Origin: Raillietiella orientalis
Lineage: Eukaryota
Assembly: GCA_036172245.1 (NCBI GenBank)
Contig: JAYWIR010000081.1
Span: 186,001 to 250,000 of the forward strand
Direction of reading: 5' to 3'
DNA: 64,000 bases
Shown: piece after piece, positions 404 to 57,828 of the stretch
Numbering within the stretch: the first letter of the stretch is position 1
How the letters are laid out: every line of letters starts with the position of its first letter
The notes under the pieces: model-generated
The model's database searches: none
The model's input: only the letters and a program-made list of their open reading frames with translations
Told to the model about the DNA's origin: nothing
Program-made: the position numbers and the translations under genes

Positions 404-1470
404 CGCAAGGCGGTCGACTTCGTGGACCAGGAGCTTTTGTTGGAGCTCCTGGGTCGCATGGGCTTCCCACCCTTCCTACTAACCTACCTTCGCTCTTGCT
501 GGCGCAACGCTATAATCAACGTCTCTTTCAGTAGTTAACAAGTGTACGGCGTGCCGGTGCGACGGGGCATCAGGCAGGGCGATAGCCTTAGTCCCCTGCT
601 CTTCAGCTCCTACTTCCAGTTTGTGCTGAGAGCATACAGGGTGACTTTGGCTGCTTTGCCGAGCTCGTGCCCCGGCACGCACGCCGTAGCGGCTTACGCC
701 GATGATCTTCTGCTCCTTTGGCCCATGTTCGCCCCGGTAACCGCAGTCGAGGACTTCTTCGACCTGTTAAGTCGTGGGACTGGACTACGGGTAAATAAGG
801 CAAGGTCATCGGTGGTAGCGGCTGGTGCGACGTGGGTCGGACGGCCTGACTGGATCCGTTTGTGGATCCCCATGGCGAGGTGCTTGAAGTTCCTTGGTGT
901 GCCGTTGGGGGACTATTCCCCTTAGGAAGCGTGGTCGGGACGTCTCCGGAAAGTAGAGTTGGAGATCGTCCCGTTCTTGGAAGACAGGTTTCTCCTTCCG
1001 GAACGGTCCGCGGTGTGAAACGCGTTCGCGGCTTCCATCCTCCAGCCCCTGCTTTTTGTTTGCCCCGTCCCGCTGCAGTTGACGAAACGGACGAAGGACC
1101 TGCAAATGATCGCCCTTTGGGGAAGAGGGAGGCCCTGACTCCCGTTGATGAACTTGTGTGCTCCGCGTCGGGATGGCGGTCTCGGTCTCTTGACGCTGGA
1201 GAGAGTGGAGTCTCAGCTGCGATTACGTACCCTGGCCATCGCAGCGAAGTTATGGAGCACCCCTAGGTGCATTCAGACCCGCCTTCTAGCCAGCCGTGTG
1301 TCCCGCTGCGATGGACTCGCATCTTTTCTTCTGCGCCCAGGCCAGAAGATAAGAAGATGCGGCCTACAGCTCGGGCGCGTGGCAACATTGGTCAAGGAGA
1401 ACGTCTGGATGGCATGCAGTTCCGCCAACTCCTCCGCATGGCTGGAATAATCTGTCTGAATTAAAGTCCC
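404..1470 (+). pseudogene. Degenerate LINE ORF2 fragment (RT domain, B/G-type), host of the family A insertion
   Basis: KAxDFVDQELL, RRGIRQGDSLSPLLF, AYADDLLL, LKFLGVPLG, APRRDGGLGL; in-frame stops. Confidence 0.9.
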
Positions 1471-1479
1471 CAGCGATCA

Positions 1480-2378
1480 GGTGTGCCTTCCGCACGTTCG
1501 TATCGGCCAGCCATTCGCGCTCTTTTGTCGTTCAATTGTGCGACATCGAACCGGAAATCTCCGACCGCGATGTTGTAAGCGTGCTGGCGAAGTTCGCCAA
1601 AGTGCACGCCCTGTAGAGGATGCCGAACCCTTTGAAGGATTCCTCCTTTGTCCACATCGGACAAGCCTCCGCTCGGATCACCGTCGCGAACAGGCGTGTT
1701 GTGCCTGAGCAGCTGCAGTTGAACGGCACGGTCGTTCATCTGTGATTTATAGACCAAACTCGCGCGTGCAAGCAGTGAGGCAAGAATGGGCTCCGAATTA
1801 AAGAGTGCCCCTCTCCTAGATGCCGTTATTGCAAAGATTCCGGGCACGAAATCAAAAAATGCTCGGTACTTGCACGAAAAAGAGCCGCATCGGAAATTCG
1901 TCGGGTTGAAGAGACCACTGCACGAAAAGCCGCAGCGGCAAATAAAAAAAGTCGTCGGCAAAAACTCGGAAAAAACAACGAGCGATCCACGGATGAAAAG
2001 AAAGCATCCCCGCCCGCAACGCCCCTAAACTGGAAAGTCACGGCGGAGAAGACAATAAAAGGGGCGCGAGGGTTTGACGCGTGCCGTGCCTTTCCTCTCT
2101 GCCGAACTCGCAGGCAACTCTCCGAGCCAGGAACCAGGAAATCTCCGTAACACCCTAAAGGGAAAGGTAGAAAAACAAAAAGATCGCAACAGTACGAAGA
2201 GTTTTAGCCCCGTTCCTTTGTCCCTTCCGAGTTCCGGACAGCCCCACTGCAGCGTAGGCCTTTCTTCAGAGGCTACGAAAGCCGTAAAAGCAGCGTCGCA
2301 GCAAGCAAAAGCACGCTGCATGCAGTCGCCCCTTCGCCAACTCGGCAGGTTCCCCCAACTCCCACAAAAGGTGGAGTA
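1480..2378 (+). pseudogene. LINE ORF1 fragment (RRM-like region plus zinc knuckles), probably the 5' part of the family E copy that resumes at about 7870
   Basis: Manual translation SFVVQLCDIEPEISD...KFAKVHAL...CKQ*GK..C..CRYCKDSGHEIKKC resembles ORF1 at 27346-29199; link to E is inferred from position. Confidence 0.65.
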
Positions 2379-24494: not shown

Positions 24495-26129
24495 TCGAAC
24501 GCCTTATGGAGATCGACTGCGGTCGCTAGGGCTCCCTTCCCCGCCCCGAGTTCCTTTCCCAGCCCCGCTGGCGGCCCCAATGTTGGGTTGCCGATTTTCC
24601 CTTTCCCTTTCTTCTCTCTTCTCCTAGAATGCATCCACGTGCTTGCGAAGAAGAGGTTGGCGTCCATACATCGCCCGGGAACAGCATAGGTCTGCTCCGG
24701 GCTAATTGTGGACTCTGCCACCTGCCCCAAACGCGAAGCCCGTAGCCCTGCTAGCAACTTGGCGTCCGTATTCACGATGGTGATCGGACGAAAGTTGCTC
24801 AATTACCTGAGGTCTCCCTCTTTCGGGAGGAGCCTCACTCTGGATGAACGAAAAGAGGCGGGAACATCGCCTTCGTCTCGGATCAGCCTTGTCAACACGA
24901 GCACCACGGGGGCCAGATCTTGCGCGGAGCACAGAAAGAACTCCGCGGGCAAGCAATCCTCTCCTGGCGCCTTAAGCCTCTTGATCCTTTTGATACCGGC
25001 GAGAAATTCGCAGAGAGTGAAAGGCTTGTCGAGGCTTACCGACTCCTCTTCCCCTATTGCGAGGGCACCATCCGGGAGCAAGCGCCAAGAGGCATCTTAG
25101 TCCGAAGGCGTCGTGGCTTAGAGGGATGAATAAAATCTCCGCAGGAGATGTTGTTATGACGCCGGAAACGAACATTCCCGGCCCTGATCGTACAGCAAGC
25201 TGGCCGACCCGGATTGCTAGGCTTGGCGTTCGGTCCCAGCGCGGTACTCGGCCAAGCGACGCACATTAGCTGTTCTCTCGTAACGACGGTCCTGTAAATA
25301 GGCTCTATGGTTGTGAGGACCCTCGCGAAATCCGGGGGGCGGGCGATCCAGGGGGAACTGCTCGCAGAACTCCCGGACCGAGGCCTCAAAAAGGACCCAA
25401 TCCGAGAGACGCTGGAGCGTGACGCCTCTCAGAAATTTGCAAAGGTGTTCCTTCGCACCTTAGAGTCGCGTCCAGTCCCCCGGCAGACGCCAATATCTGG
25501 ATGGCGGTCTTTTGTCGCGAGGCCGCATCTCGAAAACTAACCGGACATGGTTCAAAAACCTCGACGCAACCCTCCTTCGTTTGCCGAACCGTGAAAACAC
25601 GTGAACGTCGAGGTAGACGTGGTCGATGCTGCGGATTATTCCCTTCTCACCCGCGAACAAGTTGCGCGCACGCATGGCGGCGCTGAACTCGTTCATCGCG
25701 TTCTCTTGTGTTTCAGGCTCACCTGTTAGCAGGCGGAGATTAAAATTTATTACCCGGTCACGCCGGGGCGTTTATTAATAATAATAAACTGGTCATGGAC
25801 AAAGTCCTCAACAACAGAACGTCACGGAACATAGAAAAATTCTCGGCACGCAGGCCTGGTAAACAAACCGCTCGCAGCGTGGGAGGAATGAGGGGAAACA
25901 AACAAAAATCAAAAACTGGAGGGACGGGTAACGGGTTTTTGGTTAGGCTCCGTACTCAAGGGAATTTATACGATGAGCACCTGAAATGTTCCGCAGCCTA
26001 TGGGGACGCTGGTGTGGAAAGAAAATACAAAATTAGTTTATGGAGGGAAGGGCAATGATCACCGGGCTGGCCGCTGCTGAGCGTGTGTCAACCGGCGGTG
26101 TATTGCGGCGAGATTCCTTTTTTTCTCCT

Positions 26130-27389
26130 CAGTCAACCGGCTGCTTCGGATTGACTTCAATCCTGGTGGCCAACGAACGCAGCCTGAACCATTGTGGTTA
26201 TCAGCTGCCGGATTTGGTTGCTCTGATGAGAGACAACCCTTGGATCTCCTGCATCCCAGCGGACTGGACTACCTGGCTTCAGGAGTCCGTATCCGCATGG
26301 GCGAAGATCAATGGCACCAGCGATGAGGACTTCTCCTGCCTCCGCAGAGGAAGGCACGCTGGTCAGCCACTCCAGGAGATCGTTTCCAACCCACGGAAAC
26401 TTCTGTGTGCTTCCTCCCCCCCCTTGCCCCAGTGCTGCCCTCCCTCAGGGAAGTTCGTGACAGCCACCAACAGGCATCGTGGGAAGTGTCCTGTCTCATC
26501 GGAGGCAGGAAAAAATCACTGAAGGCGTGGACGCCGAGGGAACTAGCGGACGCTAGTACCCCGAGTGTCCCGCCGAACGGACTTTTACGCTGTGGCGCGC
26601 TACAAGGTATACCTCCGGAGGAGGTGAAGTGGCCCCCAGCGTCATGGGACAACGGCACCCTTCCCCTGTAGTGGCAGGAGACGGCGTTGCTTCTGCTCCA
26701 CTGGGGACTTTTAAGCAGAGCACGCCTGTCGCGCTGGACATCGGGGAATGTGGATGCTAGTTGTGCAGAGTGCGGCAAAAGGGAGACCTTCCCCCACTTG
26801 ATTCTGGAGTGTGTTGCCCTCCACGAAATGTGGGACAGACTCTCGTCGATCCTCAACATTCCGGAGGGTGACCCGAAAAATATATTCAGACGCCTTCTAA
26901 CGCGAGACGGCTTGCCAGCCTCCGGGAGCGTAGCAGTGCTCTGCTGCATACGCGGTATCCTGGAGAAGTGGACCGCGTCTAGGAGAGGAAGGACAGCCGG
27001 AATGCCATCTACTGGGCAGCGATCTCCTTGGAGAAAGCGTGCCGTTGGCGCCGACTTCAAAAACATTTACCGGCACTTGTCCGCATTCGAAACCGGATTC
27101 AAAGGCCTGCTCACGGCGCAATGTGATCCCCTCCCTCCCTCCCGCTACCCAAAAACATTGCCCTCCAGACGTTTTTCTTTTTTTGTTTTGTTTTCTGTTT
27201 ATTTTCTCCGTCCCGGCGCCAGTGAAGGACTTTATCGGCCTCCGGGTCGATAAAGACAAGTGCTATTTAACTTCAATGAACGTCTGACGTCCGAAAAAGA
27301 AAATTTTTTTTAACAACAAAGACCTTATTACAAAATTTTGTAATGTCAGAATTTTAGTAATAAAAGCCCCGGCTTACCCGGGTGAAAAA
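26130..27389 (+). mobile_element. LINE family F-like 3' fragment, antisense within family C
   Basis: LLLHWGLLSRARLSRWT..CAECGKRETFPHL matches 40747..41388; 3' motif 27359-27389. Confidence 0.82.
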
Positions 27390-29199
27390 CCCCGTCGGGT
27401 TTCGTGGAGACTTCGCGTTGCTTCGCGGCGAGCGTTGCCTGGCTGCCTACTTTTGATCGGCGCGCACACGCTTTTGAACGAGTTGTCCTCGTCTCGGTGA
27501 TCGGAACAGCATCCACTTCAGAGTCCGACCGGCGCATGTTCGATCGGGTTTCGGCCTTCCGCGAAGTAGTGACAGGTTCTGCTGGATTGACAGCTGTCCT
27601 GTTGTCGTTTTCCGTCACCAGAGCATCGCTTTTGGTGACGGCTGCTTTCCCGGCGCGCGCGTTTTCAGCGTGCTCACGCGCAGTTGCACGAGGGACCTTT
27701 GCTGAAGTCTTCTTTACTTCATTACGGTTCCTCACTTCGCGTGGCGCCGTAAATGGAGATTGTGCTCCATTGCCATCTTTGAAGCCATCCGCGTCTTTGG
27801 ACGTGAGCACTTTGGATGGCTTCGACACGCTCGTCATGGACGCTGCCTTCGGAAGGGCTTTTAATCCCTTCGTTGGCATGGCATCCGCGCCAGTCGAGAG
27901 CTTGCTCTCCGATTGCGACGGCGTGTGATTTTTCTCCGCTTTCGCGGTGTTGGATCGCGACGCAGATGTTTTTTTGCCGACTTTCGAAGTCGACACGGCA
28001 CAACCCTTCTTACCCAATTTAGGCTTCTCAGCCACTGCAGAAGGTGAAGGAATGGATCTGACGGTACTGGAAGTGTCCTTACCGCCGTTGTCCATTGGCG
28101 TCCCCGTCTGTTGCTCGAACTCCGAGAGAGCCGGGCGTGCTTGGGAAAGACAGCTATTGCGCCTAGGGCAACTTACCATTGCCCCGGATTCCCCGCACTC
28201 TTTCTTTTTCGGCTCCCCTGCCGCGAGACGAAGCGCGCAGGGCTTCGCGTGAGAGGTTTCCTGCTGCTTTGGGGCGACATTCCGCCTCGCGTTTTTACGG
28301 AATTTCCGCCGTGAGGTCTCCAGGTTTTCAGCAGATTTTTTCTTTTTATCCGCGCTTTGTTTTTTAAGATGGAACTGAGCGGCTGTCTTTTTTCGCAAGG
28401 GATCCGGGCAATTTTTCAATTGGTGCCCGGATAGTTTGCAATAACGGCATATTCCAGAGGAACATTTATCCAAACAATGCCCCTCCTTCCCGCATTGCTC
28501 GCACGTTCTTGCTTTGCCCACGAACCACAGGTGAACGACCGTGTCTTCAACCTGTAGTTTGGTGGGCAGCAGACGGCGGTCCGGCATTGTAAGCCGGACT
28601 CCAGCGACTCCGCAGTGTATGGACGGGAAGTCCTTGAGGTTGCTACGCACCCTCCAAAGCGCATGGACCGCGGCGAATGTCGCCAACGCGTTCCGAGTTT
28701 CAATATCGGAGATTTCCGAATCGATGTCAAAAATCTCCGCCACAAATGAGTCGTCCATGGCGGCCGGGAAGACCTTCTTGCCACGGATCGCCAACATGGT
28801 GCGCAGCAAGCGTTGCACAAGTGCAGCGTCTTTGCAACGCACCTTGAAATAGTCCATATTCTTTACTTGCATAATGGCGAGGAGGTCCTCCTCCCGCACG
28901 CCAACACGGGTCAGTTCATCGTTGAACTGATTCCCGTCGCGCGCAGAAAGAAAGCCACTCACCTTATATCGGAGAGCAGGTCTATAGCCTTGGGCTACGT
29001 ATGCTCGCAACTTCGACTCGTCGAGTGGTTTCCCTTTTACGGCTGCTGTGGCAGCAACGTCAGCAAAACTCCTCTCCATTGGCGAGAACGACGAAGTGGA
29101 GGCGGCCGTCGGTTCCGCGATTGCGGATCCGGATTCTGTTCCTCCAACTTCAGTAGCTTCGTGTTGGGTCGACATCGTCGTCAAAATGTACGACGCCAA
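27390..29199 (-). CDS. Family C ORF1 (about 600 aa open frame, two CCHC knuckles, Lys/Ser/Ala-rich tail); C-terminus cut by an insertion
   Basis: ORF 27346..29199; CEQCGKEGHCLDKC and CRYCKLSGHQLKNC; the last ~14 codons come from the inserted element. Confidence 0.8.
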
Positions 29200-30224
29200 G
29201 ATGGAGCGGATGAAAGCACGGTGACCAGAGCGAAGAAAAACACGTCCGCACTTGATTGAAATCTCCCGCTATCAGGTGAGCCTTCCGCACGCTCGTGTCC
29301 GCCAGCCAGTCGCGATTCAGGGATTGGAGCAACCTGGTGCGGTCGCTGTATCCCTGTTTACCGCTCGGGACGTACACATTTGTGATGATCAGTTCGATCG
29401 AGTTGGACCAGCTGAGAATCAGCTGAACGTTTCGATCGTCGTCATTGATGCGAACGACCTTTACGGCAGCGTCGATGGCCGGCTTCACGAAGAAACCGAC
29501 CCCGCAGGTGTTGCGGCAGCCGCTTTGCAAGTACAGCCGACCTCCCGCGATGGTCTCGATTTCCTGGACTTCCGTCGCAGAGATCACGTGGATCTCCTGC
29601 AGCAGCGCCAGGTCGTGCTCACGCAGGGTGTCGGCCGTATATCGTCTGTTGCCGTCGTCGTGCAGCACGTTGACATTCCAACAGGCGGCGCGAATCCGAC
29701 AGCGACTGGCGAGCCCAGGTGTTAGTCCTGGGAAAACGGCAATGCGGCGTCCGCCACCTGCTAGGGCGGGTCGCTAGGTGGAGGTGAAGGGGAGACAGGT
29801 ACTGAAGGCACCTTTTCCTCCTCCTCCATCCGTGCTGGCGCGCCGGCCGGATCACCCGCAGGTTGAGTGGCGCCTACCTGTGCGCCCTTCAACATGGATT
29901 CGGGCTGTTCAGGTTCCGGGACTGCAGGGAGGACTTCACCCCCCTGCTCACCCTCCTCCATGGTGGTGACCGACTCGATGGCTTCGGGAGTGGGTGTTCC
30001 CTCTCCGGGATTCCCACGCTGCCGGTTCCTTCCGGCTTCTCCTCCTCGGGAAAAGTAAAGGCGCCTCCTGGGTTTCTGGGACTTGCGTCCCCACTTACTG
30101 GGGATCGCCTCCGAGGAGGAGGATGTGCTTACGGCCCTTAGTTCGCACTCACCTGCGGGGGCCTTCTTCGTCGGAGCCGACCTGCGTACGCCCTTGCGCG
30201 ACGGGGTTTTGCGCTCGGAGAGCG

Positions 30225-30380
30225 TTACTGCGAGCTCCTCCGCCGCTTTCTCGAAGGCCGCGTCTTCGCCAGCGGCGACCGTTGCCGCGGGCTGCTCCGC
30301 GACCTTATCGAGCGCGGAGTCATCGCTGACGGCGATCGTTGCCGCGGGCTCCTCCGCGACTTTATCGAGCGCGCCGTCCT
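30225..30380 (-). repeat. 57-bp coding tandem repeat (about 2.7 copies) in family B ORF1
   Basis: DGALDKVAEEPAATIAVSD / DSALDKVAEQPAATVAAGE / DAAFEKAAEELA; only a single unit in the other B copies. Confidence 0.75.
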
Positions 30381-43479: not shown

Positions 43480-46400
43480 CGAGTGGACGTGTGTTTCCTT
43501 CGCTCCCGAGTGAGTCGACAGGAAGCGGTTTTTTCTTGTGTTGTTTGGTGTGGAACATCGTTGGTGTCCGATGGCAGCGATGCCTGAGGACACCACGATG
43601 GAGGTAGGTGTGGGGGAGGCTTGCCCACCCCCACAGCCTACAGAATCAGGGGCGTCCGCCCCGGAATCGCCCTCGCCGCTCAAGGCGAGGAGCTGGAGCG
43701 CCATGGTGGCCGCGCCGAGCGCGGAAACCATGGCCGAGATGGCGGCCTACCGGGCAGCTGGGTACAAGCCCAGCTTGGTTTACCAGGTAGGCAATCTCTT
43801 TGAAGGGCGAATTGCACGCGCTTTTTCGAAAGCGCTGCAGAACGCCAACGTGTTGGAAAAGGACCTTGATGGTCTATCCGTGCTCAACGGGGGTCAGCGC
43901 GTCGAATTGTCTGCAAGGACATCACCTTGGCGCAAAGATTGTTAACCACCCCGCTGAACGTGAACGCACGCAAGATCCTACCAGTCACGATGATCCGCTC
44001 CGTAGTGGTCCATCTGACAGGGATCACCAGCCGCATGACGCGGTCTGCGGTTGGTGATCAGTTAAGAAAGTATGGAGATGTTCACCCGCTATGGCCAAAG
44101 GCCACAATCTTCGATGGCTACGATAGCATTTTCGGAGGTCAGGCCGCCGCGCGCGTGGAGTTGAAGCAGAGTGGGCTTCCCCACAAACTGGAGGTCAATG
44201 GCGAAGTCGTAGACCTCTGGTACGTGGGGAAACCCCGCTTTTGTGGCTACTGCAATGCAGTAGGACACTTGCGCAAGAGGTGCCCGAACATTGTGTGCCA
44301 CTTATGCGGGGAGAGGGGCCACGTACGCCGCGTATGCCCTAAACGCCCCACTCCGGTGCCGCCTGCTGCAAAGAAAGCACAGAAAAAACGCGGTAAACTG
44401 GTCGAAAGACCAAAAAGAGATACTGGCCGGCAGCAGCCGCTAGCCCCTGTTCCTCCCACACAAGCGTCGGAAGAAAAACCCTCCGAAGACGCGGGAGTCG
44501 AAGACGGCTGGCAGCTGGTCAAGGCCAGAAAGGAGAAAAAGGTGCCCCCCGCGTAACCCGCGAAAGCGGTAAAAAAGACAGCCGGCAAGGCGAAAAAACC
44601 TGGGCCGCGCTCTAAGACCATGCGAGAGTGTACGGTAGCACTGGAGCGCATAGCCGTTCCCGAGATTGCCACCCAGGGCGACGAGCCTTCCCTCGCCGTT
44701 TGCGCCGCGCCCGAGGTTCGCCACGGCGAACCCTCTGTTTACACAGAGGGTGTGCCGCGCGAAAGAGCGACGGTCGAAGCCGAGGACGGCTCGTTTGCTC
44801 AGAAGCCGGAGGAGCTCGCGGCCACGCTAGCCGAGCGTGGGAACCCCTCGCGCAAGGCCGTGCGAAGGCCGGCACCCGCGAAAAAGGCCCCCACAGGTGA
44901 GTCGGATCTGGAGGCCGGAAGTGCATCCTCCTCCTCGGAGGCACCCCCCAGGAAGTCGGGACGCAAGTTTCAGAAACCCAGGAGGCGCCTCCCCTCCACC
45001 AGCGAGGAGGACAAGCAGGAAGGTAGCGGTAGCGTGGGAATCCCGGAGGGGGAACTCCCACGCTCGGAAACCGTCGAGCCGGCCACCACCATGGAGGAGG
45101 GTGAGCAGGGGGGCGAAGTCCTGCCCGCAGTCGCCGAGCCTGAACAGCCCGCCCCCATGGAGGAGGGCCAACAGGTAGGCGCACACCACCTGAGGGTGAC
45201 CCGCTCGACGCGCCGTTACACATGGAGGAGGGGGACCAGGTGCATGCAGCGTCTGTCCCTCCTCCTCCACCTAGCGTCCCGCCCCAACAGCTGGCGGACG
45301 CCGCATCGCCATCTTCCCAGGAGTAACACCTGGGATCGCCAGTCGCCGTCGGATCCGCGCAGCCTGTTGGAACGTCAACGGGCTGCGCGGCGACAGTAAC
45401 AGGCGAGATACGGATGACACCCTGCGTGAGCTCGACCTGGCCCTGCTGCAGGAGATCCACGTGATCACCGCGGCAGACGCTCAGGAGATAGAGACGATCG
45501 CGGGAAGTCGGTTGTATTGGCGGTGCGGCCTCCGCAACACCTGCGGGGTCGCGTTCTTCGTGAAGCCGGCCATCGACGCTGCCGTGAAAGGCGTGCGCTT
45601 CGATGACGACGGTCGGATCGGTCAGCTGATTCTCAGCTGGTCCGACTCGATCGAACTGATCGTCACGAATGTGTACGCCCCCAGCGGAAAACAGGGATAC
45701 AGCGACCGTACCAGGCTGCTGGAATCTTTGAAGCGCGACTGGCTGGCGGACACGAACGTGCGGAAGGCTCACCTGATAGCGGGATATTTGAATCTCCGTC
45801 TGCTAACAGGTGAGCCAGAAACACAAGAGAACGCGAAGGACGAGTTGTGCGCCGCCATGCGTGCGCGCAACTTGTTCGCGGGTGAGAGGGGAATGGATCG
45901 CAGCATCGACCACGTCTTCCTCGACGCTGACCTGTGTTCACGGGTCGGCAAACGGGGGAGGGTTGCGTCGACGTAGTCGGACCATTGCCGGTTAATTTTC
46001 GAGATGCGGCCTTGTGACAAGGGACTGCCATCCAGGGATTGGAGTCTGCCGTGGGACTGGACACGACTCTCAGGTGCGAAGGAATTCCTTCGCGAATACC
46101 TGAGAGGCCTCACGCTCCGGAATCTCCAGGACTGGGACCTTTTTAAGGAATCGGTCCGCGAGTTCTGTGAGCAGTTCCCCCTGGATCGCCTGCCCCCGGA
46201 TTCGGCGAGGGTCCTCACAACCCTCGGGCCTATTTACAGGCTCGTAGGTACGAAAGAACCCCTAATGTCCGTCGCCTGGCCGAGTACCGCGCCGGGGCCG
46301 AACGCCAAGCCTGGCAATACGGGTCGGCTAGCTTGCTGGACGACCAGGGCCGGGAATGTTCGTTTCCGTCGTCGGTAAGGCATCTCGTGCGGAGTTTCTA

Positions 46401-49125
46401 TTCCTCCCTTTACGCCAAGGAGCCCCCGGATCCAGACGCCTCTCGACGCTTGCTTCCGGATGGCGCTTTGGCAATAGGGGAGGAGGAGATGGAAAGCCTC
46501 GACGAGCCTGTTACCACTGGCGAAATTCTAGCCGGTATCAAAAGGCTCAAGAAGCGTTAATTCAAGGGGAAGACGGCTTGCCCGCGGAGTTCTTTCAGAG
46601 CTTCGCGGAAGAGGTGGCACCCCTGCTGCTTAAGTTGATCAGGCTGATCCGAGACGGAGGCGATGTTCCCGCCTCGTTTCGGTCCGCCAGAGTGTGGCTC
46701 CTTCCGAAAGGGGGAGACCTCAGGGATTTAAAGAACTGGCGTCCGATAACGATCGTGGATACGGATGCCAAGTTGATCGCAGGGCTATGGGCTTCGCGTC
46801 TGGGGCAGGTGGCAGAATCCGTAATTAGCACGGAGCAGACTTATGCTGTTCCCGGGCGAAGTATGGATGCCAACCTCTTCTTCTGAAGCACATGGGTGCA
46901 CCTGCTGAGAAGAGAAAAGAAAGGGATAGGGAAAGTCGGCAACTCCACATTGGGGCCGCCAGCCGGGCTGAGAAGCGACCCCCGGGCGGGAAAGGGTGCC
47001 CTAGAGCTCGCAGTCGAACTCCACATGGCGTTCGACTGTGTAGACTAGGAACTTCTCTCGGAGCTCCTGGGTCGCATGGGCTTTCCACTCTCCCTGATTT
47101 CCCACCTGCGCTCTTGCTGCCGGAATGCGATCATTACCGTCTCTTTCAGCGGTCAAAAGTTGTATGGCGTGCCGGTGCGGCGGGGCATAAGGCAGGGAGA
47201 TAGCCTCAGCCACCTGCTCTTCAGCACCTACTTTGAGTTTGTGCTGAGAGCGTACAGGGTGACTTTGGCCCCATTGCCGAGCTCGTGCCCCGGCGCGCCC
47301 GCCGTAGCAGCGTACGGCGACGATCTTCTGCTCTTGTTGTCAATGTCCACCCCGGCAAAGGCGGTCGGAGACTTCTTCGATCTGCTCAGCCGCGGGACCG
47401 GACTGCAGGTTAACAGGGCGAAGTCGTCGGTTGTGCCAATAGGTGCGGCGTGGGCAGGGCAGCAGGACTGGGTCCGTCTGGGGATACCCACGGGGAGGTG
47501 CTTCAAATACCTTGGTGTGCCGTTGGGGGACTACTCCCCTGCGGAAGCGTGGTCCAGACGCCTCCAAAAAGTCGAGACGTGGATCGGCCCGTTCCTGGAA
47601 GGCAAGTTTCACTTGCCGGAACGGGCCGCGGTTTGGAACGCCTTCGCGGCCCTCATCCTCCGCCCCTTGCTTTTTGTTTGCCCCCCCACCGTGGAATCGA
47701 AGAAGAGGACGAAGGACCTCCTCCGTATCGCCCTTTGGAGCAAAGGGAGGCCCCGAGTCCCACTGAAGGACTTGTGCGCTCCGCGTCGGGACGGCGGTCT
47801 TGGCCTCCTGACGCTGGAACGCGTGGAGAAGCAGCTGCGATGGCGAACCCTCGCCACCGCAGCGAAGATGTCGAGCACCCCTTGGTGCACTCCGGCCCGC
47901 CTTCTGGCCAGATGTGTGTCCCGGTGCGATGGACTCGCGTCTTTTCTTCTGAGCCCTGGCCGGAAGATGCGGAGATGCGGCCTACTGCTCGGGCGCATGG
48001 CAACATTGGCCAAGGAGAACAGCTGGCTGGTTTGCTGCCCCGCCAACTCCCCCGCCTGGCTGGAGGAGAATATTGGAACGTGGGCTGTAGTTAACCAGAG
48101 AAGCCACGAGACGTGGAATCGTCTCCGATGCAGCCATTTCGCCCGCTGCACGCTGCGGAATCTCCTGGAGAGTCCAGCAAGATGCACGTGGGCAGAGACG
48201 ACCTGCCTAGCTACGGCGCTGCCCTTCCTGAGGAGGGCACTTCACAGCTCACGGACGCCAAGCTGGCAAGTCTCCTGCTGCATCGAGGGACGCGAGAGGT
48301 TGATCAGCGGCTGCACAGCAGCAGAACTGGGCGACGCCACGACCCCGAGCGTCCAGCCGCGAGGATTATTAAGATGGCGCAAGCTGCTCGCCATCCCCAG
48401 GGATGAGCTGAAGTGGTCCCCGGTGATGAAAGAATCCAGGATCCTGCCCCTCAAGTGGCAAGAGTCGGCGTTGCTTTTGTTGCACTGGGGTCTACCCTGC
48501 AACGCGCGCCGCTTCCACTGGACGAGGGGAGCTGTGAATCCTGCGTGTGCCAAGTGCGAGGAGCGGGAGTCGCTTCTCCACCTTATTATGTATTGTGCTG
48601 CCCTCCGACCCCTTTGGGAACGGTTCGGGACGACCCTCGGGCTCCCTACGGGCAGCACCCCCAGAGACGTTCTTCGGCCCCTCTTCGTGAAGGACGCACT
48701 GCAGCCAGCAGCAGCCATCGCAGCCTTGTGCTGCGTCCGTGGCATCGTGGCGGCATGGAGCGACGCCTGCAACGAAGGAGTGGGTTTGCAGGCGAGGGAT
48801 GTCATCCCGTATGCCCAACGCTTCTTGCGAAGAGCTGCCGGATGGCTTCAACTGGGGAATATGCAGACTGACCTCCAGGGCTTCGTTCGACAGAAGGGCC
48901 TTCCCCACAGCGACCAGTGATCCCTTCCCTGCCCTCCAACTTCTTTTTGTTTGTTTCTTTTTATTTTACTTTTTGTCTTATCCCCATCCCCCTTCGCTGT
49001 CGGGGAGTGCCACGCCGGGCTGCGTCCCGGTGTCCCGACAGGTCGCGTGTTTACGGCCGTTGTGGGGTCTCGTACCACGCATGTAGAGTTTACAAATAAA
49101 CGCCCCGGGCGTACCCGGGTGGCAA
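43480..49125 (+). mobile_element. LINE family B, full-length (about 5.65 kb), flanked by a ~15-bp TSD
   Basis: cgccgaaacccttgg (43465-43479) / cgccgaatcccttgg (49126-49140); ORF1 43571-45326, ORF2 about 45326-48920; 3' motif 49095-49125. Confidence 0.92.
47076..48920 (+). pseudogene. Longest open part (614 aa) of family B ORF2: RT C-terminal half plus Cys/His finger
   Basis: RQGDSLS, AYGDD (YADD variant), FKYLG, CAKCEERESLLHLIMYC; upstream ORF2 has stops. Confidence 0.9.
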
Positions 49126-49140
49126 CGCCGAATCCCTTGG

Positions 49141-52100
49141 AGAGTGGACGTGGGTTTCCTTCGCTCCCCAGTGAGTCGACAGGAAGAGGTTTTTTTCTTG
49201 TGTTGTTTGGTGTGGAACATCGTTGGTGTCCGATGGCAGCGATGCCTGAGGACACCACGATGATGGTAGGTGTAGGGTGTACATGCCCAACCCCACAGCC
49301 TACAGAATCAGGGGCGTGCGCCCCGGAAACGGCCTTGCTGCCCAAGGCGAGGAGCTGGAGCGCCATGGTGGCCGCGCCGAGCGCGGAAACCGTAGCCGAG
49401 ATGGCGACCTACCGGGCAGCTGGCTACAAGCCCAGCTTGGTGTACCAGGTAGGCCCCTTATTTGACGGAAAAACGGCACGCGCGTTTTCGAAAGCGCTGC
49501 AAAACGCCGGAGTAAGAGAACATGACCTTGACGGTTTCTCCGTTCTCAGCGGAGGTCAGCGAGTCGAGGTGGTGGGCAATGAGATCACCTTGGCTCAGAC
49601 TCTGATCACCAACCCGTTGAACGTCGAAGGCCGCAAGATCTTGCCGGTGACGATGGACCGCTCCGTGGTGGTCCATCTCACTGGAATAACGAGCCGTATC
49701 ACTCGCTCTGCGGTAGCACAAGAACTACAAAAGTTCGGCGAGGTGCACGCGCTGTGGCCTAAGCCAACAATCTTTGAAGGCTTCAATAGGTATTTCGGAG
49801 GCCAGGCTGCAGCGCGGGTAACCGTGAGTAAGGACTGTGGGCTTCTTCACAAGCTGGAGGTCGCGCAAGAGAGCGTGGACCTCTGGTACGTGGGAAAGCC
49901 CCGGTATTGGGGCTACTGCGATACCATAGGACACCTTCGCAAGAGGTGTCCTAACATCCAATGCCACATGTGCGGGGAGAAGGGCCACGTTCGACGTGTG
50001 CGCCCAAAACGCCCCGCCCAGGTTCCTCCTGCGACGAAAAAGGCGCAGGGGAATCGCACACTAAATGTCACAAGACCTAAGGCGGACGCTGGCCGGCTGA
50101 AGCTTCCAGATCCTTAACCTCCAAAAGAAAAGACGGAGGAGAAACCTTCCCAAGAGGCCGAAGGTGAAGAGGGCTGGCAACATGTAGCAGCCAGAAAAAA
50201 CATTAAAGCTCCTTGAAAGGAAAAGAAAGAGAAGCCGGCCGGTAAGGTAAAAAAAACCCGGGCCGCGTTCGAAAACCGTACGCGAGTGCACGGTGGCACT
50301 GGAACGTTCCGGAAGATGCCACCCAATGCGACGAGCCTCCCCTTGCCGTTTCCCTCGCGCACGAAGTACGCGACGGAGAACCCTCTGTGCAAACAGAGGG
50401 TGAGCCGCGCGACGCGCCGGTCGACACCGAGGACGCCGCGTTCGCCAAGCGGCGGAGGAGCTCGCGGCCACGCTGGCGGAGCGTGGGAACCCCTCGCGCA
50501 AGGCCGTGCGAAGGCCGGCACCCGCGAAAAAGGCCCCCACAGGTGAGTTGTACCTGGGAGCCGGAAGTGCATCCTCCTCCTCGGAGGCACCCCCCAGGAA
50601 GTCGGGACGCTAGTCCCAGAAACCCAGGAGACGCCTCCCTTCCACCAGCGAGGAGGAGAAGCAGGAAGCTAGCGGTAGCGTGGGAATCCCGGAGGGGGAA
50701 CTCCCACGCTCGCAAGCCGTCGAACCGGCCACCCCCATGGAAGAGGGTGAGCAGGGGGGCGAAGTCCTCCCTGCAGTCGCCGAGCCTGAACAGCCCGCCC
50801 CCATGGAGGAGAGCCAACAGGTAGGCGCGACCCCACCTAAGGGTGACCCGCTCGACGCGCCGTTACCCATGGAGGAGGGGGACAAGGTGCACGCAGCGCC
50901 TGACCCTCCTCCTCCACCTAGCCTCCCGCCGCAACAGGTGGCGGACGCCGCATCGCCATCTTCCCAGGAGTAACACCTGGGATCGCCAGTCGCCGTCGGA
51001 TTCGCGCCGCCTGTTGGAACGTCAACGGGCAGCGCGACGACGGTAACAGGAGAGATACGGCCGACGGCCTGCGTGAGCTCGACCTGGCGCTGCTGCAGGA
51101 GATCCACGTGATCACCGCGGCAGACGCCCAGGAGATCGAGGCGATCGCGGAAGGTCGGTTGTATTGGCGGTGCGGCCTCCGCAACATCTGCAGGGTCGCG
51201 TTCTCCGTGAAGCCGGCCACCGATGCTGCCGTGAAGGGCGTGCGCTTCGATGACGACGGTCGGGTCGGTCAGCTGATTCTCAGCTGGTCCAACTCGATGG
51301 AATTGATCGTCACGAATGTGTACGCCCCCAGCGGGAAACAGGGATACAGCGACCGCACCAGGCTGCTGGAATCCATGAAGCGCGACTGGCTGGCGGACAC
51401 GAGCGTGCGGAAGGCTCACCTGATAGCGGGAGATTTCAATCGAGTGCGGACGTGTTTTTCTTCGCTCTCGTCCCCGTGCTTTCATCCGCTTCACCTTGGC
51501 GTCGTACATTTTGACGACGATGTCGACCCAACTTGAAGCTACTGAAGTTGGAGGAACAGCATCCGGATCTGCAATCGCGGAGCCGACGGCCGCCTCCACT
51601 TCGACTTTCTCGCCAATGGAGAGGAGTTTTGCTGACGTTGCTGCCACAGCAGCCGTCAAACGGAAACCACTCGACGAGTCGGAGTTGCGGGCATACGTAG
51701 TCCAAGGCTATAGACCTGCTCTCCGATATAAGGTGAGTGGTTTTCTTTCTGCGCGCGACGGGAATCAGTTCAACGATGAACTGAGCCGTGTTGGCGTGCG
51801 GGAGGAGGACCTCCTCGCCATTATGCCCGTGAAGGATATGGGCTATTTCAAGGTGGGTTGCAAATACGCTGCACTTGTGCAACGCTTGCTGCGCACCCCG
51901 TTGTCGATACGTGGACAGAAGGTCTTCCCGTCCGCCATGGACGACTCATTTGTGGCGGAGATTTTCGACATCGAGTTGGAAATCTCCGATATTGATACTC
52001 GGAACGCGTTGGCAAAATTCGCCGCGGTCTATGCGCTGTGGAGGGTGCGTAGCAACCTCAAGGACTTCCCGTCCATACACAGCGGAGTCGCTGGAGTCCA

Positions 52101-55100
52101 GCTTACAATGCCGGACCGCCGTCTGCTGCCCACCAAACTACAGGTTGAAGACACGGTCGTTCACCTGTATTTCGTGGGCAAAGTTAGAACGTGCGAGCAA
52201 TGCGGAAAGGAGGGGCATTGTTTGGATAAATGCCCCTTTGGAAAATACTGTGATTGCAAACTAGCCGGGCACCAATTGAAAAATTGCCCGGATGCTTTGG
52301 GAAAAAAGGCAGCCGCGGAACTCCATGTTAACAAACAAAGCGCGGATAAAAAGAAAAAATCTTCGAAAAACCTGGAGACGTCGCGGCAGAAATTGCGCAA
52401 AAACGCAAAGCGGAATGTCGCCCCAAAGCAGCAGGAAACCACTCACGCGAAGCCCTGCGCGCTTCCTCTCGCGGCAGGGGAGCCGCAAAAGAAAGAGTGC
52501 GGGGAATCCGGGGCAATGGTAAGTCCCCCTAGGCGCAATAGCTGTCCTTCCCAAGCACGCCGGGCTCTCTCGGAGTTCGAGCAACCGGCGGGGACGCCAA
52601 TGGACAACGGCGGTAAGGACACTTCCAGTACCGTCAGATCCATTCCTTCACCTTCTGCAAAGGCTGAGAAGCCTATATTGGGTAAGAAGAGTTGTGCCGT
52701 GTCGACTTCGAAAGTCGGCAAAAAAAAATCTGCGTCGCGATCCAACACCGCGTAAGCGGAGAAAAATCACACGCCGTCGCAATCGGAGAGCAAGCTCTCG
52801 ACTGGCGCGGATGCCATGCCAACGAAGGGATTAAAAGCCCTTCCGAAGGCAGCGTCCATGACGAGCGTGTCGAAGTCATCCAAAGTGCTCACGTCCAAAG
52901 ACGCGGATGGCTTCAAAGATGGCAATGCAGCACAATCTCCATTTACGGCGCCACGCGAAGTGAGGAACCGTAATGAAGTAAAGAAGACTTCAGCATAGGT
53001 CCCTCGTGCAACTGCGCGTGAGCACGCTGAAAACCTGGCTTTGCTGCGCCCAACTTGCAATAGGGGAGGAGGAGATGGAAAGCCTCTACGAGCCTTTTAC
53101 CACCGTTGAAATTCTCGCCGGTATCAAAAGGCTCAAGAGGCGTAAAGCTCCAGGGGAAGACGGCTTGCCCGCGGAGTTCTTTCAGAGCTTCGCGGAAGAG
53201 CTGGAACCCCTGCTGCTTAAGTTGATCAGGCTGATCTGAGACGAAGGCGATGTTCCAGCCTCGTTTCGGTCAGCCAGAGTGAGTCTCCTTTCGTAAGGGG
53301 GAGACCTGAGGGATCTAAAGAACTGGCGTCCGATCACGATAGTAAATACGGACGCCAAGTTCATCGCAGGGCTATGGACTTCGCGTCTGGGGCAGGTGGC
53401 AGAATCCGTAATTAGCCCGGAGCAGACTTATGCTGTTCCCGGGCGAAGTATGGATGCCAACCTCTTCTTCGCAAGCACATGGGTGCACCTGCAGAGAAGA
53501 GAAAAGAAAGGGATAGGGAAAGTCGGCAACCCCACATTGGGGCCGCCAGCCGGGCTGGGAAGGGACCCCCGGGCGGGGCAGGGGGCCCTAGCGCTCGCAG
53601 TCGATCTCCACAAGGCGTTCGACTGTGTAGACCAGGAACTCCTCTTGGAGCTCCTGGGTCGCATGGGCTTCCCACCCTCCCTGATTTCCTACCTGCGCTC
53701 TTGCTGGCGGAATAGGACGATAACCGTCTCTTTCAGTGGACAGAAGGTGTATGGCGTGCCGATGCGGCGGGGCATAAGGCAGGGCGATAGCCTCAGCCCT
53801 CTGCTCTTTAACACCTACTTTGAGTTGGTGCTCAGAGCGTACAGGGTGACTTTGGTCCCCTTGCTTAGCTCGTGCCCCGGCACGCCCGCCGTAGCAGCGT
53901 ACGCCGACGATCTTCTGCTCTTGTTGCTAATTTCCACCCCGTCAAACGCGGTCGGAGACTTCTTCGATCTGCTCAGCAGCGGGACCGGACTCAGCGGGAC
54001 TGCTCAGCACCAAGAGGTGATCGGCAAAGCATCTTCCTATATGGAAGGAGCCGCCAGATGGCCTCAATTGACCGAGGATACGAAAAGGGATCTCGCTAGC
54101 ATACGCCGACGGTTTACAGACGCTACCCAACAGCGCACCCGGTGATCCTTACCCCTCGCCCCCTTGATATGTTTTTTTTTTTTTTTTACTTCCGCCCTAT
54201 TAGGCTCCGAAACATTTTAAGTGCTCTCTATTTGAATCCCCGTGAGTACGGAGCTTCACCAAGGACCGGTTACCCCTCTCTCCAGATTTAGATTTTTGTT
54301 TGTTATCCCTCTACACCCTCAGTGTTGTTGGAAGCGGTTTGTTCACCAGGCCTGTGCGCCAATAAATTCTCTGTGCTCCTTGTCGTTTTTTTGGTTACAG
54401 ACATGGTCTTTGACCGGCTTATTTTCAATAAACGTCCAGGCGTGACCTCGTGAATAATTTCAATCTCCGCCTGCTAACAGGTGAGCCAGCAACACAAGAG
54501 AACGCGATGATCGAGTTGTGCGCCGCCATGCGTGCGCGCAACTTGTTCGCGGGTAAGAGGGGAATGGTCCGCAGCATCGACCACGTCTTCGTCGACGCTG
54601 ACCTGTGTTCACGGGTCGGCAAACGGGAGAGGGTTGCGTCGACGTTGTCGGACCATTCCCGGTTAATGTTCGAGATGCGGCCTCGCGACAAAGGACCGCC
54701 ATCCAGAAATTGGCGTCTGCCGGGGGACTGGACGCGACTATCAGGTGCGAAGGAACACCTTCGCGAATACCTGAGAGGCGTCACGCTCCGGAATCTCCAG
54801 GACTGCGACCTTTTTAAGGAATCGGTCCGCGAGTTCTGTGAGCAGTTCCCCCTGGATCGCCTGCCCCCCGGATTCGGCGAGGGTGCTCGCAACCATCGGG
54901 CCTATTTACAGGCTCGTAGGTACGAGTAAACCCCTAATGTTCGTCGCCTGGCCGAGTACCGCGCCGTGGCCGAACGCCAAGCCTGGCAATCCGGGTCGGC
55001 CAGCTTGCTGGACGACCAGGGCCGGGAATGTTCGTCCCCGGCGTCGGTACGGCATCTCGTGCGGAGTTTTTATTCCTCCCTTTACGCCAGGGAGCCCCCG

Positions 55101-57828
55101 GATCGAAACGCCTCTCGGCGCTTGCTTCCGGATGGTGCCACGGCAATAGGGGAGGAGGAGTCCTTAAGCCTCGATGAGCCTTCTACCACCGGCAAAATTC
55201 TCGGCGGTATCAGAAGGCTCAAGAGGCGGAAAGCTCCAGGGTAAGACGGCTTGCCTGCAAAGTTCTTTCAGAGCTTCGCGGAAGAGCTGGCACCCCTGCT
55301 GCTTAAGTTGATAATGTTGATCCGAGACGAAGGCGATGTTCTCGCCTAGTTTCGATCAGCCAGAGTGAGGTTCATTCCGGAAGGGGGAGACCTTAGAAAT
55401 TTGAACAACTGGCGTCCGTTCACGATTGTGAATACGGACGCCAAGTTGGTTGTCAGGCTATAGGCATCGCTTTAGGGCAGATGGCAGAATCCATAATTAG
55501 CCCGGAGCAGACATATGCTGTTTCCGGGCGAAGTATGGATGCCAACCTCTTCTTCGCGAGCACATGGATGCACACCCAGAGATGTCAGAGGGTGAGGAAG
55601 GGAAAGGAAAAATCGGCAACCCTACTTTGGGGCCGCCAGCAGGGAAGGGAAGGGACTCCAGTAAGGAAAAGAAGCCGTAGCACTCGCAGTCAGTCTCCAT
55701 AAAGCGTTCGACTGTGTTGAACAGGAGCTTTTGTTTGAGCTCCTTGGTCGCAGGGGCTTCTCACCCTCTTTAATCACCCAGCTGCGCTCTTGATATCGGA
55801 ATGCGATTATCTGCATCTTTCTCAGCAGACAAAAGGTATATGGCGTGCCGGTGCGGCGGTGCATAAGCCCCGCCGCACCGGCAGAGCAGGGGACTCAGGC
55901 GAAAGCCTGAGTCCCCTGCTCTTCAGCACCTACTTTGAGTTGGTGCTGAGAGCACATAGGGTGACTTTGGCCTCTTTGCCGAGCTCGTGCCCCGGCACGC
56001 CCGCCGCAGAAGCCTATGCTAACGTTCTTCTGCTCCTCTTACCTATGTCCACCCCGGCAAAGGCGGTCGGAGACTTCTTCGATCTGCTCAGCCGTGGGAC
56101 CGGACTGCAGGTCAACAGGGCGAAGTCGTCGGTGGTGCCAGTAGGTGCGGCGTGGGCAGGGCAGCAGGACTGGGTCCGTCTGGGGATACCCACGGCGAGG
56201 TGCCTCAAGTACCTTGGTGTGCCGTTGGGTGACTACTACCCTGCGAAAGCGTGGTCCAGCTGTCTTCAAAAAGTTGAGACAGCGATCGGCCCGTTCCTGG
56301 AAGGCAAGTTTCACTTGCCGGAACGGGCCGCGGTTTGGAACGCCTTCGCGGCCTTCATCTTTCGCCCCTTGCTTTTTATTGGCCCCGCCCCAAGAGTAGT
56401 TAAAAAGAGGACGAAGGACCTCCTCTGCATCGCCCTTTGGGGCAAGAAGAGGCCCCGAGTCCCTCTGCAGGACTTGTGCGCTCCGCGTCGGGACGGCGGC
56501 CTTGACCTCCTGACGCTGGAGCGGGTGGAAATCCAGCTGCGGTGGCGAACCCTCGCCATCGCAGCGAAGATGTGGAGCACCCCTTGGTGCGTTCCAGCCC
56601 ACCACCTCGCCAGGCGTGTGTCTTCATGCGAAGGACTCGCGTCGTTTCTTCTGTGCCCTGGCCGGAAGATCCGAAGATGCGGCCTTATGCTCGGACGCAT
56701 AGGAACCTTGGCGAAGACGAACGGTCGGATGGTTTGTGGCCCCGCCAACTCCTCCGCCTGGTTATAGGAGTCTGCTGGCACATGATCTAAGCTGCACCGG
56801 AGAAGTGAAAACCACATGAACTGCCTGCGAATCGGCCCATACGCCAACCGCACCCTGCGGGAAATACTGGAATTTCCCCGGAGCCGCAGGTGGGCGTTGA
56901 CGACTCCCCTTGCTACGGCGATGCCCTACCTCCTGAGGGCGCTTCAGGATCGCCAGAAGCAGAGGTGGCAAGTCTCCTGCCGGATCGCAGGCAGGGAGAA
57001 GATGTTAAGCGGATGGACCACAGGAGAACTGGCGGCCGCCACGACTTAGAGCGTCCAGCCGCGAGGATTAATGAGATGGAGCAAGCTGCTCGCCATCCCT
57101 ACGGTTGTGGTGAAGTGGCTCCCGGTACTTAAGGAAACCATGATCCTGCCCTCTGAGTGGCAAAAGTCGGCGTTGCCACTGCTGCACTGGGGTTTACCCT
57201 GCAACCCACGCCGCTTCCACTGCACAATGGGAGTTGTGGATCCTGAGTGTGTAAGGTGCGGAGAGGGGGAATTGCTCTCTCACCTTATTGTGGACTGTGC
57301 TGCCCTCCGACCCCTCTGAGAACGATTCGGGACGACCCTCGGGCTCCCTTCGGGCAGCACTCCCAGAGACGTTCTTCAACCTGTCTTCGTGAAGGACGCA
57401 CTGCACCTAGCCGCAGCCATCGCAACCTTGTGCTGCGTCCGTGGCATCGTGGCGGCATAAGCGACGCCAACAACGAAGGAGTGGTTCAACACGCAAGAGA
57501 TGTCATCCCATACGCCCAACGCTTTTTGCGGAGAGCTGCCGGATGGCACAACTGGGAAATATGCGGATGGACCTCGAGGGCTTCCTTCAACGTATGATTC
57601 CTCCTCACAGCGAATAGTAATCCCTTCCCTCCCCTCCAAATTCTTTTTGTTTGTTCATTTTTTCTTCTTCTTTTTCTTTTATCCTCATCCCATTTTCCTG
57701 CTAAGGAACGCTACGCCGGGCAGCTTGCCGGCTTTCCGGCAGGTCCCGTGCGTATGCCCGTGAGCTGGGCCTTGTACCGCGTATGCTGGGCTTTTTAAAT
57801 AAACGCCCCGGGCGTACCCGGGTGTAAA
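49141..57828 (+). mobile_element. LINE family B, second head-to-tail copy, interrupted by family C
   Basis: 5' UTR nearly identical to 43480 onward; ORF1 to 50973; APE to AGDFN at 51441, resumes at 54457; RT 55790..56767; 3' motif 57798-57828. Confidence 0.9.
51442..54456 (+). mobile_element. LINE family C with perfect 9-bp TSD; chimeric interior (ORF1 51496 to about 53035, B-type RT piece about 53050-53990, C 3' end)
   Basis: atttcaatc at 51433-51441 and 54457-54465; ORF 51496..52755 matches 27346..29199; 3' motif 54427-54456. Confidence 0.88.

Follow-up and report, generated by a model that had tools for sequence, protein, structure and literature searches.

A candidate site-specific LINE in the endonuclease gene of a related LINE family of Raillietiella orientalis

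Background

Long interspersed elements (LINEs) that integrate at specific sites, like R2, R1 and Tx1, are natural models for programmable RNA-templated gene insertion, and the known targets of such elements comprise ribosomal RNA (rRNA), small nuclear RNA and transfer RNA genes, microsatellites, telomeres and DNA transposons. Here we describe a LINE family, named C, of which two copies lie at the same position within the endonuclease gene of another LINE family, named B, in a stretch of 64,000 nucleotides (nt) from Raillietiella orientalis (GenBank assembly GCA_036172245.1, contig JAYWIR010000081.1, positions 186,001 to 250,000; hereafter the window, to which all coordinates refer). The window, with a G+C content of 50-62%, is a dense nest of decayed retrotransposons without long terminal repeats (non-LTR). 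We propose, with a probability of roughly 0.78 and on the basis of sequence comparisons, that C represents an APE-type, L1/Tx1-like LINE lineage that integrates sequence-specifically into the family B endonuclease gene.

Among APE-type LINEs, the site-specific ones are those of the Tx1 and R1 clades, and 'transposons' form a recognised target class (PMC4640811). Within the Tx1 clade, Tx1L is directed to Tx1D (piggyBac-type), Tx1-Mar to Mariner-N4_AMi and Tx1-9_AMi to Harbinger elements (PMC4494074). These elements are, like C, of the APE type and the L1 group, and insert sequence-specifically at a fixed position of another multicopy transposable element. The known targets of these elements are, however, DNA transposons, whereas C occupies the codons of a catalytic motif (GDFN) in the second open reading frame (ORF2) of a related LINE; moreover, the Tx1 clade is described from animals, whereas the nearest clusters of the B ORF2 are fungal or oomycete. 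Sequence-specific integration into a repeated target, a feature of the Tx1 clade, was found for both C copies (2/2), in diverged hosts, and at one junction in a public sequencing run.

In R1Bm, an APE-type element of the Bombyx 28S ribosomal DNA, the endonuclease cuts both the bottom and the top target strand specifically (PMC1919474). R1Bm shares with C the fixed cut positions, the constant target-site duplication (TSD) and the fixed orientation, but has an rRNA gene and not a transposon as its target. The fungal non-LTR element CNL1 of Cryptococcus neoformans is reported to prefer its own copies as insertion sites and to form arrays (PMC12810828). It is placed in the R2 superfamily (MoTeR) and is subtelomeric, with variable TSDs (0-13 bp) and an undefined sequence specificity, whereas C is of the APE type and sits in another family, where it always occupies the same nucleotide position with a 9-bp TSD. 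Celine, a centromere-targeting LINE of poplar, is mostly nested in other retrotransposons, as C is, but has a unique TSD per copy and a regional targeting of CENH3 chromatin instead of one sequence position (PMC11288735).

A LINE with a fixed target in the coding motif of another LINE was not found in the full-text literature, a corpus that leaves most subscription journals and Repbase Reports uncovered. What would be new in C is the LINE coding motif as a fixed target; transposon-targeting site-specific APE LINEs are already known from Tx1. If true, the proposal would add a new target class for site-specific LINEs and provide a natural case of transposon-against-transposon competition within one clade, in which each insertion kills a competitor of the same clade. 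It would also point to an APE-type endonuclease that seems to read a palindromic site with a 9-bp stagger.

Results and discussion

Two C copies at one position of family B

The 9-mer ATTTCAATC occurs three times in the window, at 51433-51441 (+), 54457-54465 (+) and 29254-29262 (-), while 0.43 occurrences are expected by chance and a count of three was reached in 0 of 100 shuffles. A fourth copy at 25738-25746 (-) reads ATTTTAATC and differs by one mismatch. The two copies on the forward strand form the perfect 9-bp TSD of C2, an internally deleted C element of 3015 bp (51442..54456, +) that lies in sense within host copy B2; the 5' TSD copy (51433..51441, +) constitutes the last 9 nt of the stretch made up of the B2 codons for (G)DFN plus 1 nt, and the 3' TSD copy is located at 54457..54465 (+). 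The two copies on the reverse strand flank C1, an element of 3507 bp (25747..29253, -) in sense within host copy B3, with ATTTCAATC on the 5' side (29254..29262, -) and the deviating ATTTTAATC on the 3' side (25738..25746, -). These positions bear out to the nucleotide what had been noticed earlier from the letters and translations alone (hereafter the sequence-only reading), namely that perfect duplications flank 51442-54456 and a one-mismatch pair 25747-29253.

At both loci the host translation runs ...KAHLIAGDFN up to the C insert and resumes with LRLLTGE beyond it, and each C copy lies on the same strand as its host. Translation and strand thus agree with the earlier claim that both inserts split AGDFN|LRLL in sense within the APE domain of family B. 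The first and last nucleotides of C1 and C2 are identical, from which it follows that neither copy is 5'-truncated. Hence, at two B copies of different subfamilies, complete 5' and 3' ends of C meet the same host nucleotides, and site, orientation and TSD position are the same in 2 of 2 C copies of the window.

A third copy, B1, carries the target in unoccupied form (45766..45816, +), as an imperfect palindrome with a single ATTTGAATC (45786-45794) in its centre. The site reads AHLIAGYLNLRLLTGE and codes for AGYLN. Relative to the occupied sites, two of the 12 nt in the GDFN-homologous codons are substituted, one of these two within the 9-mer, and the pair of changes destroys the catalytic GDFN motif; a third substitution lies just downstream (three in total across the hairpin described below). 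The sequence-only reading had taken 45780-45800 for an uninterrupted allele; the site is indeed uninterrupted, but it belongs to a paralogous B copy and is not an allele. In all, eight APE copies with a GDFN-type motif were found in the window. The four that are not of the B type are all intact, and of the four B-type copies two contain C, another has a break at this position and B1 is empty, though mutated.

A single public run covers part of the window (a share of 0.23 of the sampled words); its contigs are short, and stretches they left uncovered were not interpreted. In one contig, 51432 is followed directly by 54457, with 9 bases ambiguous; this is read as a precise empty site where the 9-mer is present once. 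A second contig, which opens with 30 nt of B flank, continues into the 5' part of C; its C 5' end is 95.3% identical to C2 (76 differences in 1623 nt), but past 53034 it maps in two short patches only, and it derives from either an orthologue or a further copy. A search of metagenome contigs for exact copies of the C 5' end gave 0 loci, and a related-locus scan with the B1 APE protein yielded 216 pattern matches, of which 0 were confirmed. The sample behind our proposal thus amounts to two or three junctions, within the window and one public run.

One insertion event or two

The C1 and C2 loci were aligned segment by segment. The B 5' flanks are 83.1% identical (n=1011, standard error 1.2%) and the B 3' flanks likewise 83.1% (n=1250), whereas the 5' part of C, consisting of leader and ORF1, reaches 94.1% (n=1593, with 94 mismatches and no gap columns). 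For the C 3' tail the value is only 71.6% (n=384). The three values lie many standard errors apart, which argues against one composite that was copied once, as this would show a single divergence. The comparison of guest and flank divergence had been put forward in the sequence-only reading, together with the prediction that a single duplication would give equal values; the inequality (83.1/94.1/71.6/83.1%) speaks against such a duplication. In the ~1.7 kb that surround the site, B1, which is empty, shares 90-94% identity with the occupied B2, while the occupied B3 is 78-89% identical to either. B2 is thus closer to the empty copy than to the other occupied one, and occupancy does not follow host relatedness. 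The differences between C1 and C2 are spread evenly over the codon positions (33/26/30) and 60 of the 78 differing codons are non-synonymous, which indicates neutral decay of dead copies after insertion. Two independent C insertions, into B copies of different subfamilies, are the simplest reading of these alignments.

A single ancestral insertion of C into B could nevertheless have been copied as a B::C composite, by segmental duplication or retrotransposition, and have been altered by patchy conversion later. The BLAST alignments are uninterrupted across both junctions, mosaicism between copies is common in the window and the 60 nt upstream are identical at both loci, all of which would fit such a history. 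The history would require, however, at least two independent conversions, as the C 5' parts are younger (94.1%) and the C tails older (71.6%) than the flanks (83.1%). The proximity of B2 to the empty B1 is equally hard to accommodate given that LINE insertions do not excise precisely. In addition, the limits of the high-identity block are not random, one being close to the C 5' end and the other at an internal breakpoint of C, and families A and D show the same pattern of guests younger than their hosts at other sites. We therefore consider composite copying very unlikely.

The sequence next to the junctions bears on a related alternative. When the loci are compared, the 60 nt of B that adjoin the 5' junction contain 0 mismatches and the 60 nt directly beyond the 3' junction contain 4, versus ~8-16 per 60 nt further out. 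This gradient is what one would see if C had spread by homology, that is, if read-through transcripts or cDNAs with B flanks had been copied by recombination or conversion, so that junction and 'TSD' were inherited; the sense orientation would indeed permit co-transcription of C with B. Yet the same upstream 60 nt are almost invariant in the empty B1 (three private changes) and overlap a hairpin that is under selection at the nucleotide level, so that the identity is expected without conversion and can be read as target conservation plus ascertainment. An endonuclease that needs an intact site would produce the same bias. Furthermore, the C 3' modules, at just 71.6% identity, did not move along as one tract, and other families have fixed sites and TSD lengths of their own, as target-primed reverse transcription (TPRT) predicts. 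Spread by homology is for these reasons decidedly unlikely as an account of both loci, although homology may have assisted the 5' joining of C. Recombination, between RNAs before insertion or by conversion afterwards, was frequent among these elements, given that B1 and B2 vary between 69 and 94% identity when compared in 200-nt windows and that the 3' modules of C1 and C2 differ greatly.

The target hairpin

The C target 9-mer occupies the tip of a ~21-bp imperfect palindrome, which is uninterrupted in B1 at 45766-45816 and has a 10-bp outer stem, inner stems of 5 bp and 6 bp and the apical loop TTCA. For the rebuilt pre-insertion sites the minimum free energy as DNA was -19.8 and -21.0 kcal/mol (z -4.8 and -5.7), values reached by 0 of 300 shuffles, and, out of 12,788 sixty-nt windows across the 64 kb, the B2 site belongs to the top 0.4%. 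Two family A copies, A1 (21142-21192) and A2 (12664-12715, -), form hairpins at the same GDFN codons (-21.1 and -17.6 kcal/mol) that are built from nucleotides, and even downstream amino acids, different from those of B, while two other LINE families in the window have no hairpin at these codons (-4.0, -5.8). Reshuffling of synonymous codons gave structures as stable as the observed one in 0/1000 cases for B2, 2/1000 for A1 and 4/1000 for A2, a rarity which implies that the hairpin was maintained beyond coding needs in three lineages. The TSD spans four nt to the left and five nt to the right of the palindrome centre, and the nicks read from the sequence (antisense AAT^CTCC, sense AATC^TCC) are one nt off perfect two-fold symmetry. 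A maintained target hairpin raises the question whether it has a role for the host LINE and is at the same time a trap that keeps the host vulnerable.

A hairpin this strong (-19.8 and -21.0 kcal/mol; z -4.8 and -5.7) might also turn the palindrome into a fragile site, where cruciform or hairpin breakage leads to the capture of LINE cDNAs without any sequence-specific endonuclease. The fourth B-type copy, in which a break at this very place leads into an inverted LINE fragment of unrelated origin, fits this idea. Both clean insertions, however, are of the same family, with full ends, the same orientation and a 9-bp TSD, whereas endonuclease-independent L1 insertions, which capture breaks, are typically truncated and without TSDs. 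The comparable hairpins of A1 and A2 at the same codons are, moreover, unoccupied. Capture of C at such breaks is accordingly exceedingly improbable.

Further conserved, long hairpins were observed in ORF2 at the WNVNG codons (45336-45395, 50986-51045), at the AVD..KAFDC codons (53600-53650, 22380-22430) and in the C-terminal domain (47571-47645, 56271-56340, 33076-33150). Their stability puts them among the top 60-nt windows of the whole 64 kb, and several lie on catalytic-motif codons. The KAFD hairpin shows one compensatory change (GCAGTCGA/TCGACTGC versus GCAATCGA/TCGATTGC).

Anatomy of family C

Both copies start at the same nucleotide with (G/A)AGTGCGGACGTG..., a motif homologous to the 5' ends of families A and B. 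The leader of C is 78 nt long; in C2 (51442..51519, +) it begins with GAGTGCGGACGTG... and shares this homology. No Rfam match at gathering score was obtained for the whole window, and just two sub-threshold microRNA-like matches for 51300-54600, so that no known self-cleaving ribozyme marks the C 5' end.

ORF1 starts with an ATG at 51520 in C2 and at 29175 in C1, and its translation contains two CX2CX4HX4C knuckles, in keeping with an RNA-binding ORF1 of the RRM/CCHC type. The C2 remnant (51520..53034, +) has premature stops at 52753 and ~52996 and is 94.1% identical to C1 without indels. ORF1 itself had no Pfam match at E<=0.01 and a word-indexed protein search returned no match, and its identity to the ORF1s of other LINE families in the window is 29-45%. 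Among 1.84 billion representatives it has 168 distant relatives at E<=1e-3, the best at 33% identity; in the 15 of these 168 that were scanned we found 12 with zf-CCHC, 4 with a weak RRM below the Pfam cut-offs and 1 fused to RVT_1. In C1, ORF1 is open from the ATG at 29175 to 27386 (at least 596 codons), where it is cut by a 5'-truncated 3' fragment of another LINE (~1.25 kb; 26137..27385, +). This fragment is antisense in C1, has its own AATAAA and hairpin (27359-27385) and takes the place of C1 ORF2; it is followed by the C 3' module only.

C2 retains a fragment of the reverse transcriptase (RT) domain (53035..53994, +), which abuts ORF1 at 53034/53035 with no APE in between; the RVT_1 match extends over 53297-54142 (E 8.8e-19). 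The fragment is 91.5% identical to B1 (segment 46471-47408), 84% to B3 and 81% to B2, and the B1 segment is thereby closer to the RT fragment in C2 than to that of B2 (81%). The RT of C2 hence nests inside the diversity of family B. It may have been acquired by template switching or conversion, or be a sign of a B-like C ORF2. C1 has no RT segment in the tblastn map, and a credible APE segment was found in neither C copy by Pfam or tblastn; a tblastn APE match that starts at 54279 is a low-identity extension of the B2 APE, which resumes at 54466. Judged by their frames, C1 and C2 are dead, internally deleted, non-autonomous remnants, of which C2 keeps ORF1 and an RT fragment. An in-frame fusion of C ORF1 with B ORF2 was discarded, since the reading frame of B ends with a stop at 51536, while C ORF1 uses a different frame and begins at an ATG of its own (51520).

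The 3' module (54068..54456, + in C2) comprises the end of an ORF2-like frame, a 3' untranslated region, AATAAA, a GC hairpin that is intact in C1 and decayed in C2, and the tail GGGTAATAA or, in C2, GTGAATA, without poly(A). C2 and C1 are only 71.6% identical in this tail part. Inspection by eye revealed no evident pairing of the C 3' tail with the target at its nick, barring transcript read-through into the downstream TSD. A third C-like 3' end at ~37303 (-) has the same tail, GGGTAATAA, and was considered as a C copy elsewhere; the poor alignment of its 3' untranslated region with C, and its membership of another family, led us to reject this.

In the absence of long terminal repeats and terminal inverted repeats, and with a defined 3' end and a 9-bp TSD, C shares features of APE-type LINEs. 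Elements of the restriction-like endonuclease (RLE) type, like R2, have a single ORF with the endonuclease C-terminal to the RT. The families seen here are organised differently, their Exo_endo_phos (APE) domain being N-terminal and their ORF1 separate; among the 53 long frames of the window Pfam reported 6 Exo_endo_phos (APE), 9 RVT_1 and 1 zf-CCHC domains and no RLE-type family. In the tblastn map, made with ORF1, APE, RT and C-terminal-domain queries, these modules lie on both strands throughout the 64 kb. The label L1/Tx1-like would follow from the relatives with RVT_1 and zf-RVT-type domains and from the likeness of the hosts B and A to the human L1 endonuclease.

A tentative mechanism and its weak points

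Sequence-specific integration of C would proceed as follows. An endonuclease, supplied by an autonomous C or a C-compatible element elsewhere, would nick B on its antisense strand, where the 9-mer begins on the left (...AAT^CTCC...), and the freed 3' OH would prime reverse transcription at the 3' end of the C RNA, with its AATAAA, GC hairpin and short A-rich tail without poly(A). The sense strand would then be nicked 9 bp downstream (...AATC^TCC...) and fill-in would yield the 9-bp TSD; this order of nicks is taken from the TPRT model. Since the two nicks fall at near-equivalent half-site positions (offset 1 nt), one half-site specificity could make both cuts. The 'family-specific cleavage geometry' of the sequence-only reading should likewise be taken as a putative property, deduced from the junctions of elements of which neither C copy encodes an endonuclease.

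Several points weigh against this proposal. Just two C copies were examined, plus one contig of uncertain independence. As neither of the two carries an APE domain, the nicking enzyme is hypothetical and presumably encoded elsewhere. The RT fragment of C2 is, by its identities, B-like, which puts the own ORF2 of C in doubt. The 0 mismatches in the 60 nt upstream are also expected from a short conversion tract. Finally, the divergence of 28% between the C tails against 6% between the C 5' parts and the mosaic relation of B1 to B2 suggest that recombination or conversion was frequent and could blur the dating.

Other families with fixed sites and a shared 3' hairpin

Family A has 5' junctions at 18928 (+), 36140 (+) and 400 (-) and 3' ends near 24494 (+) and 9360 (-). 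The host codons HKAFD (RT motif A), in reverse complement, are the site of all three junctions, with family A in antisense orientation and in at least three different hosts; the guests are 89-93% identical and the hosts 73-78%. The 3' ends of family D at 16100 (-) and 34628 (+) share one position as well, the RFHWTRG codons of the host C-terminal domain, again in antisense and with guests at 81% and hosts at 65% identity. A and D thus show the same pattern of guests younger than their hosts, which points to the same behaviour in other families of the window. The A1 insertion has a TSD of 14 bp with one mismatch. The earlier statement that TSD lengths differ by family therefore stands for C (9 bp) and A (14 bp); for B, where ~15 had been given, we found a 16-bp imperfect repeat around B1.

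Twelve element ends in the window, from all families, close with AATAAACGCCCCGG-(4-6 nt loop)-CCGGG(T/A)G and a family-specific tail of 4-6 nt, without poly(A), for instance at 49095-49125, 57798-57826, 24464-24494 and 27359-27385. The stem is invariant, and the motif AATAAACGCCCCGG-loop-CCGGG has 16 matches in the window at <=3 mismatches versus 5.6 expected. The targets of A, B, C and D differ in spite of this similar 3' hairpin, which argues for family-specific endonuclease specificity and not for one shared enzyme.

A wider interpretation, for which the chances seem to us evenly balanced, is that at least A, C and D, and possibly B, make up a guild of related LINEs that are hyperparasitic on one another, each homing to a fixed ORF2 position. 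With the same even odds, C would home to GDFN (endonuclease), A to HKAFD (RT motif A) and D to RFHWTRG (C-terminal domain). The sites would be conserved at the nucleotide level, two of them as hairpins, and the hosts would seem unable to mutate away from them, a suggestion that could fall either way; they would be stuck because the sites encode catalytic motifs and selected secondary structure. If true, each insertion would find a 'safe' multicopy target and inactivate a competitor.

Host family B and its copies

The host copy B2 is split by C2 into a 5' part with the leader, ORF1 and the APE domain up to GDFN (49142..51441, +) and a 3' part with the rest of the APE domain, the RT, the C-terminal CCHC domain and the 3' hairpin (54466..57826, +). 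Upstream of C1, B3 consists of the N-terminal half of the APE domain (29263..30268, -), with a more diverged ORF1 on to ~31690; downstream it runs over 24495..25737 (-) and is cut at 24495 by an antisense family A insertion. A fourth B-type APE fragment of ~65 bp (...KAHLIAGDFN; 1457..1520, -) is broken within 1-2 nt of the C site.

Of the LINE endonucleases with a known structure, the human L1 endonuclease is the nearest to the APE domains of B and A; structures of the R1 and TRAS enzymes are absent from the PDB sequence matches for these domains. The B ORF2 groups with RVT_1 and zf-RVT clusters that are mainly fungal or oomycete, and a protein search with it gave three matches, one of them close (P0006, 64% identity).

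B1 (43481-49125) is flanked by a 16-bp imperfect direct repeat (43465-43480 and 49126-49141), and the sequence upstream of it (43330-43480) is continuous with the body of B2 (49142 onward). The upstream region of B1 is homologous to those of B3 and of an element at 17040. Two readings fit, namely sense insertion of B into leaders of the B type, or a fixed upstream target that is common to B-type elements. The earlier claim that C is the sole family clearly inserted co-directionally is therefore doubtful, as B1 stands head-to-tail before the B2 body, in the same orientation and in or beside the B2 leader.

Compared over their lengths, B1 (43465-49123) and B2 (49126-57826) are mosaic, with 93% identity in the leader and APE domain, 69-74% in ORF1 and 61-92% in the RT and C-terminal domain. 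In the B2 RT, two adjacent near-perfect palindromes (stems of 14 bp and 18 bp; 55846-55922) stand where the motif-B codons (..RRG..QGDSLSPLLF) are expected; they resemble an inverted duplication of flanking coding sequence and form the most stable hairpins in the window.

The fourth B-type fragment (1447-1520) is joined at the C site to the reverse complement of the C-terminal domain of another element, internally truncated. At its other end it abuts a 5'-truncated ORF1 (1506-1898, +), which is the closest relative of the C ORF1 in the window (45% amino-acid identity). Such an arrangement could stem from an inversion, or from an aberrant insertion event that used this cleavage site. In the element that follows B2, the 3' end of another LINE (hairpin and tail TGAAAT; 58380-58410, -) lies antisense in the N-terminal APE codons (...LLQEIHMISAEQAQDIS) and interrupts them.

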